A stretch of DNA of 7,881 nt from a virus (taxonomy: Duplodnaviria > Heunggongvirae > Uroviricota > Caudoviricetes): IMG/VR virus record IMGVR_UViG_3300029498_000057, one strand, 5' to 3'. The position numbers and the translations under genes were made by a program. The notes under the pieces were generated by a model that saw only the letters and a list, made by a program, of their open reading frames with translations, ran no database searches and was not told where the DNA came from. This document shows positions 2,951 to 7,881 of the stretch, in pieces (within the stretch, counting starts at the first letter, position 1; each line of letters starts with the position of its first letter).

Positions 2951-3418
2951 TTATTTCAGGCACTGAGTGCGGATATATTCCTGCGCCACTTCCAGCTGCT
3001 TCTGCATCAGCATCAACCGCTCTCTGAGAGTGAAATAATCCCGTTCAGCGGTGTCTGCCAGTCGGGGGCCGGTTGCATTATCCACGCCGGAGGTGGTGGG
3101 GGCTTCACGCACGGTACCGGGGCAGGTGGCGTTGATCCGCAGGCGCTTACGACCAGCGGCAACGTCAGCGCGCAGAGTTTCATTTTCAGCTCTCGCATCG
3201 GCTAATTCCCTCGAGTATCTGGCATCAAGTGCAGCAACATCACGCTGGCGCTGCTGCATATCAGTAATGGTTGCATTTGCCTGCTCCAGCTCACTGACTT
3301 TTTTATCGCGCTGCTCTTTGTAGGTTATGGCGTTATCACGGTAATGATTCAGCCCCAGACTAAGCGCACCACAGGCCACCAGCAGGGCAATGATGACCAC
3401 GCACAGTACGCGGTTCAT
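2951..3418 (-). CDS. Rz: Spanin inner-membrane subunit (i-spanin, Rz-like), 155 aa
   Basis: 155-aa ORF with an N-terminal transmembrane segment (VLCVVIIALLVACGALSL) followed by a charged, coiled-coil-like region. Clear similarity to lambda Rz (shared NHYRDNAITYK, ITDMQ.RQRDVAALDA, GVDNA..PRLADTAERDYFTLRERL). Contains an embedded +1-frame Rz1 gene and lies last in the lysis cassette. Confidence 0.93.
   Translation of the reverse strand: MNRVLCVVIIALLVACGALSLGLNHYRDNAITYKEQRDKKVSELEQANATITDMQQRQRDVAALDARYSRELADARAENETLRADVAAGRKRLRINATCPGTVREAPTTSGVDNATGPRLADTAERDYFTLRERLMLMQKQLEVAQEYIRTQCLK
3013..3198 (-). CDS. Rz1: Spanin outer-membrane lipoprotein subunit (o-spanin, Rz1-like), 61 aa, entirely embedded in Rz in another frame
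   Basis: 61-aa ORF MRELKMKLCALTLPLVVSACGSTPPAPVPCVKPPPPPAWIMQPAPDWQTPLNGIISLSESG. Has a lipoprotein signal with lipobox ending at Cys20 and a proline-rich mature part; closely matches lambda Rz1 (CVKPPPPPAWIMQPPPDWQTPLNGIIS). The true start may be the internal Met6. Confidence 0.9.
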   Translation of the reverse strand: MRELKMKLCALTLPLVVSACGSTPPAPVPCVKPPPPPAWIMQPAPDWQTPLNGIISLSESG

Positions 3419-3419
3419 T

Positions 3420-3518
3420 TCACCACCAGCGTATCTGACCGATGAAATAACCGGAGGCCATAATCACAAACACCAGCCAGATAAGAATGAACTTCCAGGT
3501 GGATAATTTTTCAGCCAT
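3420..3518 (-). CDS. Hypothetical small hydrophobic protein (32 aa from ATG 3518; 45 aa if the in-frame GTG at 3557 is used), translationally coupled to Rz
   Basis: Not in the ORF track (below its size cutoff). Minus-strand reading gives MAEKLSTWKFILIWLVFVIMASGYFIGQIRWW then TGA (3422..3420), one nucleotide before the Rz ATG (3418..3416). An in-frame GTG at 3557..3555 is preceded by AAGGAG at a 5-nt spacing; the ATG at 3518 is preceded by GGGAG. One predicted transmembrane helix. No homolog recognised. Confidence 0.4.
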   Translation of the reverse strand: MAEKLSTWKFILIWLVFVIMASGYFIGQIRWW

Positions 3519-3593
3519 CACTCGAATCTCCCGAATCAGTTTGCTAAAATCAAACACACTTTCTCCTTTGACTTTTCCAGAGTCAGGAAACAC

Positions 3594-3636
3594 AAAACCC
3601 CGCTTGCAGCCAACAAACGGGGTTTTTACTTTTATT
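3594..3636. terminator. Rho-independent-terminator-like hairpin with T-runs on both sides (potentially bidirectional) between endolysin and spanin genes
   Basis: Plus strand AAAACCCCGCTTG-CAGCCAA-CAAACGGGGTTTTTACTTTTATT. On the minus strand (the gene strand) the stem is CCCCGTTTG/CAAGCGGGG, 9 bp including one G-U pair, with a 7-nt loop, followed by TTTTGTGTTT. On the plus strand the same hairpin is followed by TTTTTACTTTTATT. Confidence 0.5.
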
Positions 3637-3716
3637 CACTTAGTTTTTGTCAGTTCGCAGGATTTCGTGTTATCCGTCCGTGTAAGCAAACCGCATTTTT
3701 CAGCAAAATATTCTGC

Positions 3717-4250
3717 TTATCTGTCGATACCCCAGCACGCCAGCGCGCTCTCCTGGTCACGACGGGATACCTGACCGTAGCAGTTGTTTGAACGAATACG
3801 GCAGTCTCTGCCACCGTCCTTAATCCACCAGCGAATCGCCTCACACGCTCCCCTGCGATCACCTGCATTAATTCGTTTATAAAACGTCGACGGGAAACAC
3901 TTACCGGGACCAATGTTGTACGGACAGAATGACGCGATCCCCGCTTTCTGGGGTTCGCTCAATGGCACTTTGATGTTTTTCTCCACCCATGCCAGCGCCT
4001 TATCACGCTCAATGGCGTTAACCCGGTCGCATTTTTCCTTCGACAACTTCATGCCCGGAACGACAGGTTTGCCATCCACCAGGATGGCACCGCGGCAGAT
4101 GGTCCAGATACCCGCGCCATCACGGTATGCCGTGGTGTGGTTACCTTCCTTTTCATCCAGAAACTGGTCGAGAATGTCAGGCGCAGGCGCACCAGCGGCA
4201 ATCAGCGCCAGAACGGCAGCCGACAGGCCGTATTTGATTTTGGTGTTCAT
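3717..4250 (-). CDS. R: Endolysin, GH24 (T4-lysozyme-like) family with an N-terminal SAR/signal-anchor-like segment (R of 933W/Qin type), 177 aa
   Basis: 177-aa ORF MNTKIKYGLSAAVLALIAAGAPAP... followed by the lysozyme catalytic region EGNHTTAYRDGAGIWTICRGA (Glu-8aa-Asp-5aa-Thr pattern). The N-terminal Gly/Ala-rich weakly hydrophobic stretch is typical of SAR endolysins. Strong resemblance to the prophage endolysins I recall from Qin (RrrQ) and Stx2 phages. Lies between the holin and Rz. Confidence 0.93.
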   Translation of the reverse strand: MNTKIKYGLSAAVLALIAAGAPAPDILDQFLDEKEGNHTTAYRDGAGIWTICRGAILVDGKPVVPGMKLSKEKCDRVNAIERDKALAWVEKNIKVPLSEPQKAGIASFCPYNIGPGKCFPSTFYKRINAGDRRGACEAIRWWIKDGGRDCRIRSNNCYGQVSRRDQESALACWGIDR

Positions 4251-4313: not shown

Positions 4314-4664
4314 TTAAGGTTGTGATTCCGGAGGAGTCTTCAGAGAACCAGTAATTCTTCCCGGTAGCTTTCCTTTGTAGGTTATCCATACATTCTGCGC
4401 CTCTAAAATTACGGGGCGCTTTTCCGGCGACTGCTCATCCCCTTCACATAACCCGGCAGCAACATCCAGGAAGACCTGTCTGATGCTCATTCTGGCTGCT
4501 GCCTCATAAAACTCCAGCGCGGCACCTTCAACACGGTCCAGCGAGATGTCCAGGTCAAAAATTTCACCGTCAAAGCGTTTTTTGTCCCGTAACGCTAAAG
4601 TTACCGTAACTTTATTCTCAAAATTGCGGATCCCTTTCACAATCAGTTCATAGTTTTGAGTCAT
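4314..4664 (-). CDS. ydfR: YdfR-like protein of unknown function (DUF1327-type, family name from memory), 116 aa, inserted between holin and endolysin
   Basis: 116-aa ORF MTQNYELIVKGIRNFENKVTVTLALRDKKRFDGEIFDLDISLDRVEGAALEFYEAAARMSIRQVFLDVA... Start is 4 nt after the holin stop and preceded by GGGGAGAG. The N-terminal ~75 aa resemble E. coli K-12 Qin prophage YdfR as I recall it, which sits in the same position. No transmembrane segment and no catalytic motif recognised. Confidence 0.85.
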   Translation of the reverse strand: MTQNYELIVKGIRNFENKVTVTLALRDKKRFDGEIFDLDISLDRVEGAALEFYEAAARMSIRQVFLDVAAGLCEGDEQSPEKRPVILEAQNVWITYKGKLPGRITGSLKTPPESQP

Positions 4665-4668
4665 TGAA

Positions 4669-4884
4669 TTACTCTCCCCGTGCCGCCTTACGACGGTCCT
4701 CTCTGATTTTGAAATACAGGTTAGTCAGATATGTCAGCAGCCCAAACAGCAGACTCCCCAGCACGCCTATTGCCGCCCACTGAGACGGGGAAACCCTGTC
4801 CAGCAACTGCAGGAACCAGTAGCCCGTTCCCACCGCTGACGTGGTGTATGACACACCTGTTGTGATTTTTTCCATCTGGTCCAT
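4669..4884 (-). CDS. S: Class II holin / pinholin of S21 (phage 21 / Stx-phage S) type, 71 aa, with dual-start motif
   Basis: [71 protein letters not shown]: two transmembrane segments and a charged C-terminus, near-identical to S21/933W S as recalled. Met1 and Met4 give the dual-start arrangement; GGGAGA lies ~8 nt upstream of Met1. The ORF track's 108-aa version (4669..4995) is an upstream over-extension that runs into the IS66 terminal repeat. Confidence 0.9.
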
Positions 4885-4903: not shown

Positions 4904-4929
4904 GTAACCGGCTCATTTAAACCGTCTGG
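4904..4929 (+). repeat. IS66-family left terminal inverted repeat (IRL), approximate extent
   Basis: GTAACCGGCTCATTTAAACCGTCTGG aligns in inverted orientation with the right end GTAAGCGACTCGTCAGAACCGTATTG (shared GTAA.CG.CTC...AACCGT.T). Boundary placed by the family's characteristic GTAA terminus; exact inner extent uncertain. Confidence 0.6.
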
Positions 4930-4956
4930 TCTGTTTCCTCCGGCTCTACAAAAATA

Positions 4957-5634
4957 ATGTCCATCATTTTTAATGGACACTATCGTATGAAACACCGGAC
5001 CTGGATCACTGAAGCTTTACGTCTTCACTTTGAAGAACATTTACCCCGGGTTGTGGCCGGGCGTCGCCTGGGTGTACCAAAATCAACAGTTTGTAGTATG
5101 TTCGTGCGCTTTCGGAGAGCTGGCCTTTCGTGGCCTTTGCCCGCAGGCATGTCGGAGCAGGAACTTGATGCCTGCCTTTACGGACAATTTTCCACGGTAC
5201 CAGTCGTACGTCCTGAAAGCACCGTTATATCCGAAGCCCCCGTGGTAAAAAAACGTCCCCGGCGGCCCAACTTCCCTTATGAGTTTAAAATCGCCTTAGT
5301 GGAGCAGTCACTGCAGCCCGGAGCCTGTGTGGCGCAGATCGCCCGGGAAAACGGAATCAACGATAACCTGCTCTTCAACTGGCGCCATCAATACCGGAAA
5401 GGTGGCCTGCTGCCTTCCGGAAAAAATATGCCGGCACTGCTTCCCGTGACGTTAACGCCGGAGCCGGATAATAAAATCCCGGCCCCCGCACAGGAACCAG
5501 AGCAGATAAATACACCGTCCGACAGTCTGTGTTGTGAGCTGGTTCTGCCGGCCGGAACTCTCAGGCTTAAAGGTAAACTGACGCCGGCGTTATTACAGAC
5601 ACTTATCCGCGAAATAAAAGGGAGCAGCCACTGA
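4957..5634 (+). CDS. tnpA: IS66-family accessory protein TnpA (Orf1) with an N-terminal helix-turn-helix-like extension, 225 aa
   Basis: The C-terminal half contains the IS66 Orf1 signature ([49 protein letters not shown]). The N-terminal ~100 aa carry an additional HTH-like segment ([21 protein letters not shown]). The start codon is uncertain: ATG 4957, or an in-frame ATG 30 nt downstream. Stop overlaps the tnpB start. Confidence 0.8.
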
Positions 5635-5981
5635 TGATATCTCTCCCTGCAGGTTCGCGTATCTGGCTGGTTGCAGGTATCACCGATATGCGAAATGGCT
5701 TTAACGGCCTGGCATCAAAAGTTCAGAACGTCCTGAAGGATGACCCGTTCTCCGGACACCTGTTCATCTTCCGCGGACGCCGGGGTGACCAGATAAAAGT
5801 GTTGTGGGCTGACAGTGACGGACTGTGCCTCTTCACCAAACGCCTGGAGCGGGGCCGCTTCGTCTGGCCAGTCACCCGTGACGGCAAGGTGCACCTTACT
5901 CCGGCTCAGTTATCCATGCTTCTTGAAGGTATCAACTGGAAGCACCCGAAACGAACGGAACGCGCTGGAATCCGCATATAA
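5634..5981 (+). CDS. tnpB: IS66-family Orf2 (TnpB accessory protein; not the IS200/IS605 TnpB nuclease), 115 aa
   Basis: [79 protein letters not shown]... is the highly conserved IS66 Orf2 sequence pattern. Its ATG overlaps the upstream stop (TGATG), a typical translational coupling in this family. Confidence 0.93.
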   Translation: MISLPAGSRIWLVAGITDMRNGFNGLASKVQNVLKDDPFSGHLFIFRGRRGDQIKVLWADSDGLCLFTKRLERGRFVWPVTRDGKVHLTPAQLSMLLEGINWKHPKRTERAGIRI

Positions 5982-6000
5982 CCCGTTGTAAAGTGAGGAT

Positions 6001-7572
6001 ATGGACACCTCACTTGCTCATGAGAACGCCCGCCTGCGGGCACTGTTGCAGACGCAACAGGACACCATCCGCCAGATGGCTGAATACAACCGCCTGCTCT
6101 CACAGCGGGTGGCGGCTTATGCTTCCGAAATCAACCGGCTGAAGGCGCTGGTTGCGAAACTGCAACGTATGCAGTTCGGTAAAAGCTCAGAAAAACTTCG
6201 TGCAAAAACCGAACGGCAGATACAGGAAGCACAGGAGCGAATCAGCGCACTTCAGGAAGAAATGGCGGAAACGCTGGGTGAGCAATATGACCCGGTACTG
6301 CCATCCGCCCTGCGCCAGTCTTCAGCCCGTAAACCGTTACCGGCCTCACTTCCCCGTGAAACCCGGGTTATCCGGCCGGAAGAGGAATGCTGTCCTGCCT
6401 GTGGTGGTGAACTCAGTTCTCTGGGATGTGATGTGTCAGAGCAACTGGAGCTTATCAGCAGCGCCTTTAAGGTTATCGAAACACAACGTCCGAAACAGGC
6501 CTGTTGCCGGTGCGACCATATCGTGCAGGCACCAGTACCTTCAAAACCCATTGCACGCAGTTATGCCGGAGCGGGGCTTCTGGCCCATGTTGTCACCGGG
6601 AAATATGCAGACCATCTGCCGTTATACCGCCAGTCAGAAATATACCGTCGTCAGGGAGTGGAGCTGAGCCGTGCCACACTGGGGCGCTGGACAGGTGCTG
6701 TTGCTGAACTGCTGGAGCCGCTGTATGACGTCCTGCGCCAGTATGTGCTGATGCCCGGTAAAGTCCATGCTGATGATATCCCCGTCCCGGTCCAGGAGCC
6801 GGGCAGCGGTAAAACCCGGACAGCCCGGCTGTGGGTCTACGTCCGTGATGACCGTAACGCCGGTTCACAGATGCCCCCGGCGGTCTGGTTCGCGTACAGT
6901 CCGGACCGGAAAGGTATCCATCCACAAAATCACCTGGCCGGTTACAGCGGTGTGCTTCAGGCCGATGCTTACGGTGGTTACCGGGCGTTATACGAATCCG
7001 GCAGAATAACGGAAGCCGCGTGTATGGCTCATGCCCGGAGAAAAATCCACGATGTGCATGCAAGAGCGCCCACCTACATCACCACGGAAGCCCTGCAGCG
7101 TATCGGTGAACTGTATGCCATCGAGGCAGAGGTCCGGGGCTGTTCAGCAGAACAGCGTCTGGCGGCAAGAAAAGCCAGAGCCGCGCCACTGATGCAGTCA
7201 CTGTATGACTGGATACAGCAACAGATGAAAACACTGTCGCGTCACTCAGATACGGCAAAAGCGTTCGCATACCTGCTGAAACAGTGGGATGCACTGAACG
7301 TGTACTGCAGTAATGGCTGGGTGGAAATCGACAACAACATCGCAGAGAACGCCTTACGGGGAGTGGCCGTAGGCCGGAAAAACTGGATGTTCGCGGGTTC
7401 CGACAGCGGTGGTGAACATGCGGCGGTGTTGTACTCGCTGATCGGCACATGCCGTCTGAACAATGTGGAGCCAGAAAAGTGGCTGCGTTACGTCATTGAA
7501 CATATCCAGGACTGGCCGGCAAACCGGGTACGCGATCTGTTGCCCTGGAAAGTTGATCTGAGCTCTCAGTAA
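6001..7572 (+). CDS. tnpC: IS66-family transposase TnpC (Orf3), 523 aa
   Basis: 523-aa ORF preceded by GTGAGGA. Has an N-terminal coiled-coil/leucine-zipper-like region, a Cys-rich zinc-finger-like motif (CPACGGEL...CRCDH) and a large catalytic core, typical of IS66 transposases. Ends ~30 bp before the right terminal repeat. Confidence 0.93.
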
Positions 7573-7576
7573 ATAT

Positions 7577-7602
7577 CAATACGGTTCTGACGAGTCGCTT
7601 AC
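7577..7602 (-). repeat. IS66-family right terminal inverted repeat (IRR), approximate extent
   Basis: Reverse complement of 7577..7602 is GTAAGCGACTCGTCAGAACCGTATTG, beginning with the canonical IS66-family terminal GTAAGCG and matching the left end at about 18 of 26 positions. Confidence 0.6.
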
Positions 7603-7881
7603 AAGAGGAACGAGAACCATTCATAGAGCCTAACACACTAAATGCCGCATTGAATCCCACGACTCGGCACGATCAACGTAAGATAATCGGAGCTTGCTGC
7701 ATGGTGACAAATGGAAAATGTGAAGGTAAAGAAAACGACATTACTAACTGACGTTTGTATCTAACACTGGGGACAGGTCACCTTGAATCGATGGAAGTCT
7801 CATTATGGATTTGCCCCTATATTTCCAGACATCTGTTATCACTTAACCCATTACAAGCCCGCTGCCGCAGATATTCCCGTG

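Follow-up and report, generated by a model that had tools for sequence, protein, structure and literature searches.

The hairpin between the endolysin gene (R) and the spanin genes of the lambdoid lysis cassette analyzed here is, with a probability that we put at about 0.55, a bidirectional Rho-independent terminator that lies at the junction between the endolysin module and a slot for variable cargo, and ends a constitutive cis-antisense RNA. The cassette is part of a stretch of DNA of 7,881 nucleotides from a tailed virus (IMG/VR record IMGVR_UViG_3300029498_000057), the whole of which is referred to below as the window. The hairpin itself is real, conserved and widespread. Elements of this kind are known; the hairpin and the antisense RNA, as members of the kind, are undescribed.

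Under this reading, the junction would join the S-ydfR-R genes and a 90-nt 3' untranslated region (UTR), on one side, to the variable cargo preceding Rz, on the other side. The plus-strand face of the hairpin would end a short antisense RNA that is produced constitutively from a sigma-70 promoter located within the first small membrane-protein gene and would cover the ribosome-binding region of that gene; in the lysogen, this RNA would pair with leaky sense transcripts of the small ORF and the coupled Rz gene, blocking these transcripts. The minus-strand face would stop RNA polymerase molecules that are unmodified by the Q protein after they pass R, and polymerase modified by Q, in lytic growth, would transcribe across this sense face, in agreement with the established biology of lambda, where Q-modified polymerase ignores terminators.

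The lysis cassette and its prophage setting

All phage genes of the window are located on the minus strand. The features of the cassette and its surroundings are:

4908-7660, plus strand: IS66-family element, with ORFs at 4957-5634, 5634-5981 and 6001-7572
4669-4884, minus strand: S, pinholin of the S21 type (PF04971)
4314-4664, minus strand: YdfR/DUF1327 protein gene
3717-4250, minus strand: R, SAR endolysin (Phage_lysozyme, PF00959)
3627-3716, minus strand: conserved 3'UTR of R, 90 nt
3420-3557, minus strand: gene for a small single-pass membrane protein of 45 aa (full-length match to phrog_6632)
2951-3418, minus strand: Rz, i-spanin (PF03245)
3013-3198, minus strand: Rz1, o-spanin, embedded in Rz

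The stop codon of R is TAA (3717-3719). The small ORF starts with GTG at 3557, next to a Shine-Dalgarno sequence, AAGGAG, at 3563-3568, and its stop codon is 1 nt away from the ATG of Rz. Beyond Rz/Rz1, in the late-gene order, come a cos-like region and the genes for the small and large terminase subunits, and in a near-identical prophage that lacks the IS element (E. coli 120899), the gene for the Q antiterminator is located about 2.4 kb upstream of S. From this gene order and the Q gene of the E. coli 120899 prophage, we conclude that the window contains the section of a lambdoid late operon that is responsible for lysis, and the succession of genes named in the original prediction (pinholin, YdfR, SAR endolysin, small ORF, Rz/Rz1) is correct.

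The IS66-family element is inserted about 23 nt upstream of the start codon of S, and the phage homology to the IS-free relative ends at 4907. Because this element separates the lysis cassette from Q and from the pR' promoter, the prophage of the window is probably defective, and any transcription of S-R in the window would involve unmodified polymerase.

A stem-loop with a U-tract on either strand

Positions 3594-3636 of the window read aaaaccccgcttgcagccaacaaacggggtttttacttttatt and encompass most of the following elements:

3594-3607 and 3613-3626 (arms), 3608-3612 (loop), either strand: stem-loop, from the sequence, folding and a terminator scan
3586-3597, minus strand: U-tract of the late-operon strand, UUUUGUGUUUCC, the first four U of which double as the stem base
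3623-3636, plus strand: U-tract of the antisense strand, UUUUUACUUUUAUU

Strand-wise folding together with the terminator scan bore out the description of a stable hairpin with T-runs on both strands. In RNA of the minus strand, that is, the strand of the lysis genes, the stem consists of 14 uninterrupted pairs (6 of these G-C and 2 U-G) and is closed by a 5-nt loop; in its 71-nt context, the fold reaches -23.4 kcal/mol (z = -3.9), and none of the 200 shuffled sequences folded as well. In RNA of the plus strand, the U-G pairs become C.A, leaving 9 + 3 bp with a C.A mismatch inside and a larger loop, and the context folds at -16.3 kcal/mol (z = -2.0). The lower 9 bp of the stem (AAAACCCCG/CGGGGUUUU) are intact on both strands. 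A U-rich tract lies directly 3' of the stem on each strand, UUUUGUGUUU on the minus strand and the already listed tract on the plus strand; the latter is the better U-tract and is combined with the weaker fold.

The G+C-rich stem, the short loop and the adjacent U-tract, which characterize intrinsic terminators, are located just downstream of a transcription unit on either strand, namely, 90 nt after the stop codon of R (and 37 nt before the start of the 45-codon small ORF) on the minus strand, and 59 nt after an antisense start site mapped in E. coli O157 strain EDL933 on the plus strand. In a consensus scan, the hairpin was the strongest of the 8 terminator-like sites detected in the window; given that shuffled sequences contain 8.3 such sites, the scan alone is not evidence.

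The hairpin was identified at the same place in more than 150 related loci. Its stem is about 3 times less variable than the loop or the third codon positions of R: among 59 distinct sequences, the mean diversity was 0.014 and 0.081 in the two arms, compared with 0.151 in the loop, 0.087 in the UTR and 0.158 at the third codon positions of R. Changes in the stem tend to preserve pairing, with one pair position represented by UG, AU, GC and UA, and three others alternating between Watson-Crick and G-U pairs. Three differing stem versions are all able to fold, and for the two diverged ones, CCCCGAUUG...CAGUCGGGG and CCCCGGCUG...CAGUCCGGGG, the z values are about -3 to -3.6. The U-richness next to the stem is retained even across the homology break described below, for example, as UUUUGUUUUUAUGG in the class with a distance of 643 nt between R and Rz. 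Judging from the recurrence, the low variability of the stem and the compensatory pair changes, the hairpin is no chance feature.

The two strands are not equivalent. In the window, the stem alone reaches -20.5 kcal/mol in the sense orientation vs -13.6 kcal/mol in the antisense orientation; across 20 distinct variants of the hairpin, pairing is preserved in 92.1% of the cells on the sense strand and in 82.0% on the antisense strand, and in 19 of the 20 variants, the sense strand is the more stable one. Hence the RNA of the late-gene strand forms the better hairpin, which implies that the sense RNA is selected at least as strongly as the antisense RNA. This bias, along with the wobble substitutions that keep the pairing in the sense RNA and not in the antisense RNA, is an argument for another explanation, which follows the original prediction and under which the hairpin would be simply a terminator of S-ydfR-R operating on the sense strand only, silent under Q and effective on unmodified polymerase alone, the plus-strand T-run and the antisense RNA being incidental. 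We consider this explanation possible and rather unlikely, in view of the observations on the Ant class of cassettes and on the antisense strand that are presented in the following sections.

The hairpin marks a mosaic joint

In a survey of 208 related loci (with some contigs fetched twice), in which homology to the window was followed through the 3' end of R, homology breaks were recorded at these places:

3707-3715, the stop codon of R: 10 loci
3620-3631, the 5' edge of the hairpin: 12 loci
3588, 6 nt past the hairpin: 55 loci
3560/3561, the start of the small ORF: 71 loci

Thus, in 138 of the 208 loci, the break is located between positions 3560 and 3631 of the window, and the BLAST coverage classes agree with this picture. 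The distance between the stop codon of R and the start of Rz likewise falls into discrete classes of 299 (the window), 336/337, 427/439, 479-488, 643, 979-996 and 1425 nt, and there are relatives in which the flanking genes are contiguous. The clustering of the breaks within about 70 nt around the hairpin confirms that this region is a mosaic module joint, as had been proposed from the sequence of the window.

The inserts that occupy the slot between the hairpin and Rz are made up, in varying combinations, of genes for small membrane proteins (phrog_6632, 1115/4493, 4906 and 12997), an Ant antirepressor or a DNA methyltransferase, all encoded on the late-gene strand. In most of the cargo classes, the last small ORF ends with ...IRWW and is translationally coupled to the ATG of Rz. 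We compared the cargo slots of the window (3420-3557, minus strand) and of five other loci (L086, L122, L155, L002 and L203); searches with five small cargo proteins produced no match in Pfam, and the PHROG families that they matched have no assigned function. Within 250 nt after the hairpin, no promoter-like site in the sense orientation was detected in any of the 8 clusters of cargo sequences, and the terminator-like hairpin is located upstream of the cargo, which is coupled to Rz, rather than downstream of it as in a moron.

Four viral contigs (L203, L210, L225 and L239) represent a diverged R lineage, with a TAG stop codon and a variant of the hairpin. Sequences of the L203 type contain perfect TTGACA and TATAAT hexamers right after the hairpin, followed by a different small membrane-protein ORF; we do not regard these as a sense promoter because the hexamers are only 13 nt apart.

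Distribution of the hairpin and the R 3'UTR

Among 163 loci encoding relatives of R, collected from genomes and viral contigs, the combination of the hairpin, the TAA stop codon and the 90-nt 3'UTR was confined to loci whose R allele shares at least about 95% identity with the R of the window, and all loci with the hairpin come from E. coli, Shigella or Stx phages. A 55-nt segment containing the hairpin is present in 1941 of the 5426 complete E. coli genomes (about 36%), in 1 to 7 copies per genome, as expected from the number of prophages. Among the matches listed, the segment is unannotated, with the exception of one "hypothetical protein" call, and no annotation of the hairpin was found in phage H-19B or the other phage records opened. 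All 316 phage matches to the hairpin include the R 3'UTR and belong to Stx or lambdoid phages of E. coli and Shigella; a REP/BIME-like or integron attC-like element is ruled out by the presence of a single copy per cassette, always after R.

Outside this set, in Citrobacter, Enterobacter, Klebsiella, Kluyvera, Morganella and the Qin prophage of E. coli K-12, nearly all R genes end with TGA. In 70 of the 77 such distant loci, the next ORF begins no farther than 30 nt from the stop codon of R (in K-12 Qin, R overlaps Rz; rrrQ/rzpQ), and an intergenic terminator-like hairpin after R was detected in none of the 77. Some of the distant genera carry small ORFs between R and Rz, without the hairpin.

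The large Ant/933W-like class, which includes the EDL933 prophage at 1.65 Mb and Sakai Sp10, retains the R 3'UTR and lacks the hairpin of the window. A short alternative hairpin in this class, GGCACCGTAATGGTGCC, was considered as an equivalent terminator and rejected because the fold is weak (z = -1.2 and +0.1) and the sequence is degenerate in Sp9. Thus, the hairpin is dispensable and is not an obligatory end of the R module, which weighs against the bidirectional terminator as well as against a terminator dedicated to the sense transcript of S-ydfR-R; in favor of the latter, the hairpin travels with R and the UTR across at least 4 downstream contexts. The suggestion, in the original prediction, of a terminator that belongs to the S-ydfR-R unit accordingly holds only in part.

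Within the R 3'UTR, invariant blocks flank a hypervariable patch of about 11 nt (approximately 3676-3692), of which there are at least 4 unrelated versions; no ORF, structure or motif that we found accounts for this pattern. Several candidates were discarded, namely, an 8-codon ORF that is not conserved among the variants, in-frame read-through of the R TAA codon, which is blocked in some UTR variants, a boxB-like sequence, GCUGAAAAAUGC, the pairing of which is not maintained, and CAG-N9-CTG, which is no LexA box.

An antisense promoter and RNA directed at the hairpin

The original prediction concentrated on the late-operon strand and overlooked the antisense strand; termination of an antisense RNA was not among the options that it considered. 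On that strand, two features are predicted in the window:

3435-3464, plus strand: predicted sigma-70 promoter, CTGACC-18 nt-CATAAT, within the small ORF and aimed at the hairpin
3472-3632, plus strand: predicted cis-antisense RNA of about 160 nt, by analogy with the RNA of EDL933 CP-933M and Sakai Sp4

The former is the sole promoter-like site near the hairpin, with a predicted start at about 3471-3472; the match is weak (9 of the 12 positions, with an 18-nt spacer), and across the whole window, promoter-like matches are fewer than in shuffled sequences. The predicted RNA would be complementary to codons 1-29 of the small ORF, its Shine-Dalgarno sequence and its 5' leader and would end at the hairpin; its overall fold is unremarkable (z = -1.3). 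Promoter-like sites in the antisense orientation are also present in other cargo classes, in unrelated sequences. Exactly one such match within 250 nt of the hairpin was found in 7 of the 8 cargo clusters, compared with none of the 8 in the sense orientation and an expectation of 1.25 clusters per strand from local shuffles, in a post hoc test on the same loci, which represent about 3 independent classes. Conservation of the promoter hexamers within a class is uninformative because the diversity is too low.

Experimental data on two O157 strains, EDL933 (prophage CP-933M) and Sakai (prophage Sp4), show an RNA that starts in the cargo region and extends on the antisense strand into the hairpin; both prophages belong to cargo class B' (phrog_4493), and the window to class A (phrog_6632), of which another example is an Stx1 phage about 95% identical to the window. 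In the Cappable-seq data on EDL933 (Supplementary file 7 of PMC10469882), an antisense start is listed at NZ_CP008957.1 1272098 (plus strand) under 8 of 8 conditions and is put in the category upstream-antisense with respect to the small ORF RS06270, located between the lysozyme gene RS06275 and Rz in CP-933M. This start lies 7 nt after the TATACT of a promoter that we predicted in this locus (TGGACA-18-TATACT), and 59 nt before the hairpin. With 19,975 start sites reported genome-wide for EDL933 (PMC10469882), there is one start per about 555 nt per strand, so that such an exact match between the start and the promoter is unlikely to occur by chance. The RNA, of about 97 nt, begins beside the GTG of the small ORF in its 50-aa model and spans the Shine-Dalgarno sequence of this ORF; it folds into three hairpins (-26.5 kcal/mol, z = -3.1). 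A mapped primary 5' end and an overlap with the translation initiation region, two attributes of a cis-antisense RNA, are thus both found in class B'.

The RNase E-CLASH data on Sakai (Supplementary file 4 of PMC5286369) include an "unknown" antisense-strand (plus) RNA represented by the fragment 1184766-1184813, the start of which differs by no more than 1 nt from the EDL933 start site as transferred to Sakai. A second fragment in that file, 1184788-1184864, is an intramolecular hybrid, CCAACAAACGGGGTTTTT/AAAAACAAAACCCCGCTTGCTG (PMC5286369); these are the two arms of the hairpin, and one of the pieces ends in the U-tract, at GGGGUUUUU (...ACGGGGUUUUU), this end being a ligation junction as distinct from a mapped 3' end. 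The prophage copies in O157 are nearly identical, and some reads may therefore have been attributed to a copy other than their source.

Since the constitutive antisense RNA was found in two O157 strains, experimental support for a use of the hairpin exists solely for the strand that opposes the late operon. Several observations speak against the sense-only terminator: the experimental start and RNA fragments are aimed straight at the hairpin from the antisense side, and on the other side, no known transcript reaches the hairpin without Q, no promoter-like site on the minus strand was found upstream of it within the window, the EDL933 start-site file (PMC10469882) lists no sense start between 1271800 and 1272399, and the Sakai CLASH rows examined (PMC5286369) include no sense-orientation read at the hairpin.

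Other searches were negative. Rfam, searched with the window and the EDL933 copy, yielded only generic matches of the terminator type that stayed below the threshold (rimP leader, with 29.9 and 24.8 bits where 47 are required). Hfq crosslinking in Sakai shows no orphan peak in the R-Rz gap, a weak negative because the Sakai cells used did not express the late operon and an antisense RNA can do without Hfq. The known small RNAs of these prophages, StxS, AgvB, AsxR, PasA-D and HnrS, all map elsewhere, and none overlaps the hairpin. No connection was found between the endolysin promoters of ExPEC (PMC9621596) and this R family, and the literature search turned up no paper describing the hairpin or the antisense RNA.

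Alternative roles of the hairpin

A more ambitious interpretation, which we treat as speculative, is that the hairpin terminates a family of constitutive antisense RNAs, undescribed so far, that function in Stx-type cassettes as a switch, either similar to a toxin-antitoxin system or controlling the timing of lysis. In such a switch, each antisense RNA would pair with the start region of the small gene between the endolysin and the spanin, and would restrain the small protein and, through coupling, the spanin until late transcription outruns the antisense RNA; in the lysogen, stray transcription from upstream would be kept out of the module by the hairpin's sense face.

The hairpin may, as also suggested in the original prediction, lead to differential expression of the endolysin and spanin modules. 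That the hairpin serves as a stabilizer or processing barrier at the 3' end of the mRNA appears improbable. In that role, it would form post-transcriptionally within the long Q-antiterminated late transcript and, once this is cut farther downstream, would guard the S-R message against 3' exonucleases, resulting in a higher yield of endolysin than of spanin. The great stability of the sense hairpin, its position in an untranslated gap of 90 nt that is absent in the distant relatives, and the conservation of the stem are all compatible with this role; however, a stabilizer needs neither a U-tract nor a matching A-tract, both of which have been retained, including on the far side of the homology break, and the antisense promoter and RNA are left unexplained. 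Finally, the hairpin and the UTR might be remnants of an ancient insertion into the R-Rz interval that have no role as RNA and are maintained, as a recombination linker, because they offer shared homology for cargo swaps; this reading would account for the breakpoints that cluster around the hairpin, the absence of the hairpin from the Ant class and all distant relatives, and a UTR without a recognizable function, but is highly improbable because the stem varies less than both the loop and near-neutral sites, the changes in it are compensatory or wobble changes, three diverged versions fold, and an expressed RNA runs into the hairpin.

Comparison with known elements

The bidirectional intrinsic terminators that separate convergent transcription units in E. 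coli have a G+C-rich stem placed between an A-tract and a T-tract. The hairpin resembles these in that either strand yields a hairpin followed by a U-run and in that R converges with a short RNA; it differs in that one of the units belongs to an operon read by the terminator-resistant, Q-modified polymerase, so that its sense face would be active only when the phage is not growing lytically.

Type I toxin-antitoxin loci, such as hok/sok and symE/symR, consist of a gene for a hydrophobic protein and an antisense RNA. The parallels are the hydrophobic protein of 45-60 aa and the constitutive antisense RNA over the ribosome-binding region. Unlike these loci, the small gene considered here resides within a lysis operon and is coupled to Rz; no Pfam toxin was matched by the five small proteins, which match no known toxin family, and no sense promoter-like site that could serve a toxin gene was found.

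In the late operons of lambdoid phages HK97 and HK022, morons are described as promoter-gene-terminator units in the sense direction (Juhala et al. 2000, as cited in PMC4104026). Compared with morons as described there, the cargo slot shares the insertion between late genes that are contiguous in relatives, the sharp homology break, a terminator (here, putative) at the edge, and a site that tolerates many alternative inserts. It is distinguished by the terminator-like hairpin that precedes the cargo, the coupling of the cargo to Rz, and the lack of a detected sense promoter, the only promoter found being antisense.

Among the phage cis-antisense RNAs covered in a review (PMC12197685), lambda OOP, aQ, P22 sar and the endolysin-associated PAK_P4as15 are similarly short, overlap a translation start region and end at an intrinsic terminator, as is predicted for the RNA considered here. 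The latter differs from these examples in its location between the endolysin and the spanin genes and in its target, a small membrane-protein gene, and the hairpin RNA shows no sequence or Rfam relationship to them. The named small RNAs of Stx prophages (StxS, AgvB, AsxR, PasA-D and HnrS) also come from the late region of the same prophage family, have intrinsic terminators and lack annotation or received it only recently; unlike the hairpin RNA, these map downstream of pR' or of Rz, or to the interval that separates the esterase gene from S.

Taken as a whole, the gap between the endolysin and the spanin is a hot spot for the swapping of small genes, bounded by a conserved hairpin that probably terminates transcription both ways, and at least one common variant yields a constitutive antisense RNA that, so far, is an unnamed row in two supplementary tables. 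The lysis cassettes of Stx phages set the timing of host lysis, which releases the toxin (as stated in PMC7547250). Should the antisense RNA turn out to regulate the spanin or the small membrane protein, the timing of lysis would have an additional layer of control in prophages carried by about 36% of the sequenced E. coli; if not, the hairpin would be a clean example of terminators marking module boundaries in operons read by a terminator-resistant polymerase.

Other features of the window and of related prophages

Positions 2825-2895 of the window (plus strand) are 95% identical to a region of Sakai Sp9 that contains the Hfq peak EcOnc12, a small RNA that represses Hha and is now named HnrS (PMC13502914). 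In the window as in Sakai, this segment is located just downstream of Rz, antisense to the late genes; from the identity and the position, the window probably carries a copy of hnrS. Farther along, 20-120 nt upstream of the small terminase gene, there are a 30-nt imperfect inverted repeat (2529-2593) and a third copy of the motif CCGACATGA (2633-2646); the repeat and the copies of the motif near the small terminase gene are probably cos or terminase-binding sites, and weak Rfam matches to microRNAs at the same positions are artefacts of the palindrome.

In the record of phage H-19B (L287, AF034975.3), Rz is annotated as 573 nt long, exceeding the length in other records by about 105 nt; its start was placed upstream of the usual ATG of Rz and within the region of the small ORF.

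The start-site file for EDL933 includes a second constitutive antisense start in the same cassette (L290), at 1272853 (plus strand), just upstream of the start codon of R. It leads into a gene for a hypothetical protein on the plus strand, RS06280 (1272972-1273244), which is antisense to the R-S interval; a segment of about 280 bp that matches this antisense region of EDL933 is missing from the window. For BP-933W, an Stx2 phage of the Ant class, the same source lists an antisense start at 1360912 (minus strand) under 4 of 8 conditions. This start follows a 570-nt gene, probably ant, judging by its length and position, at a distance of 6 nt and coincides with the place where, according to the sequences of this class, a small ORF of the phrog_4906 type appears to begin.
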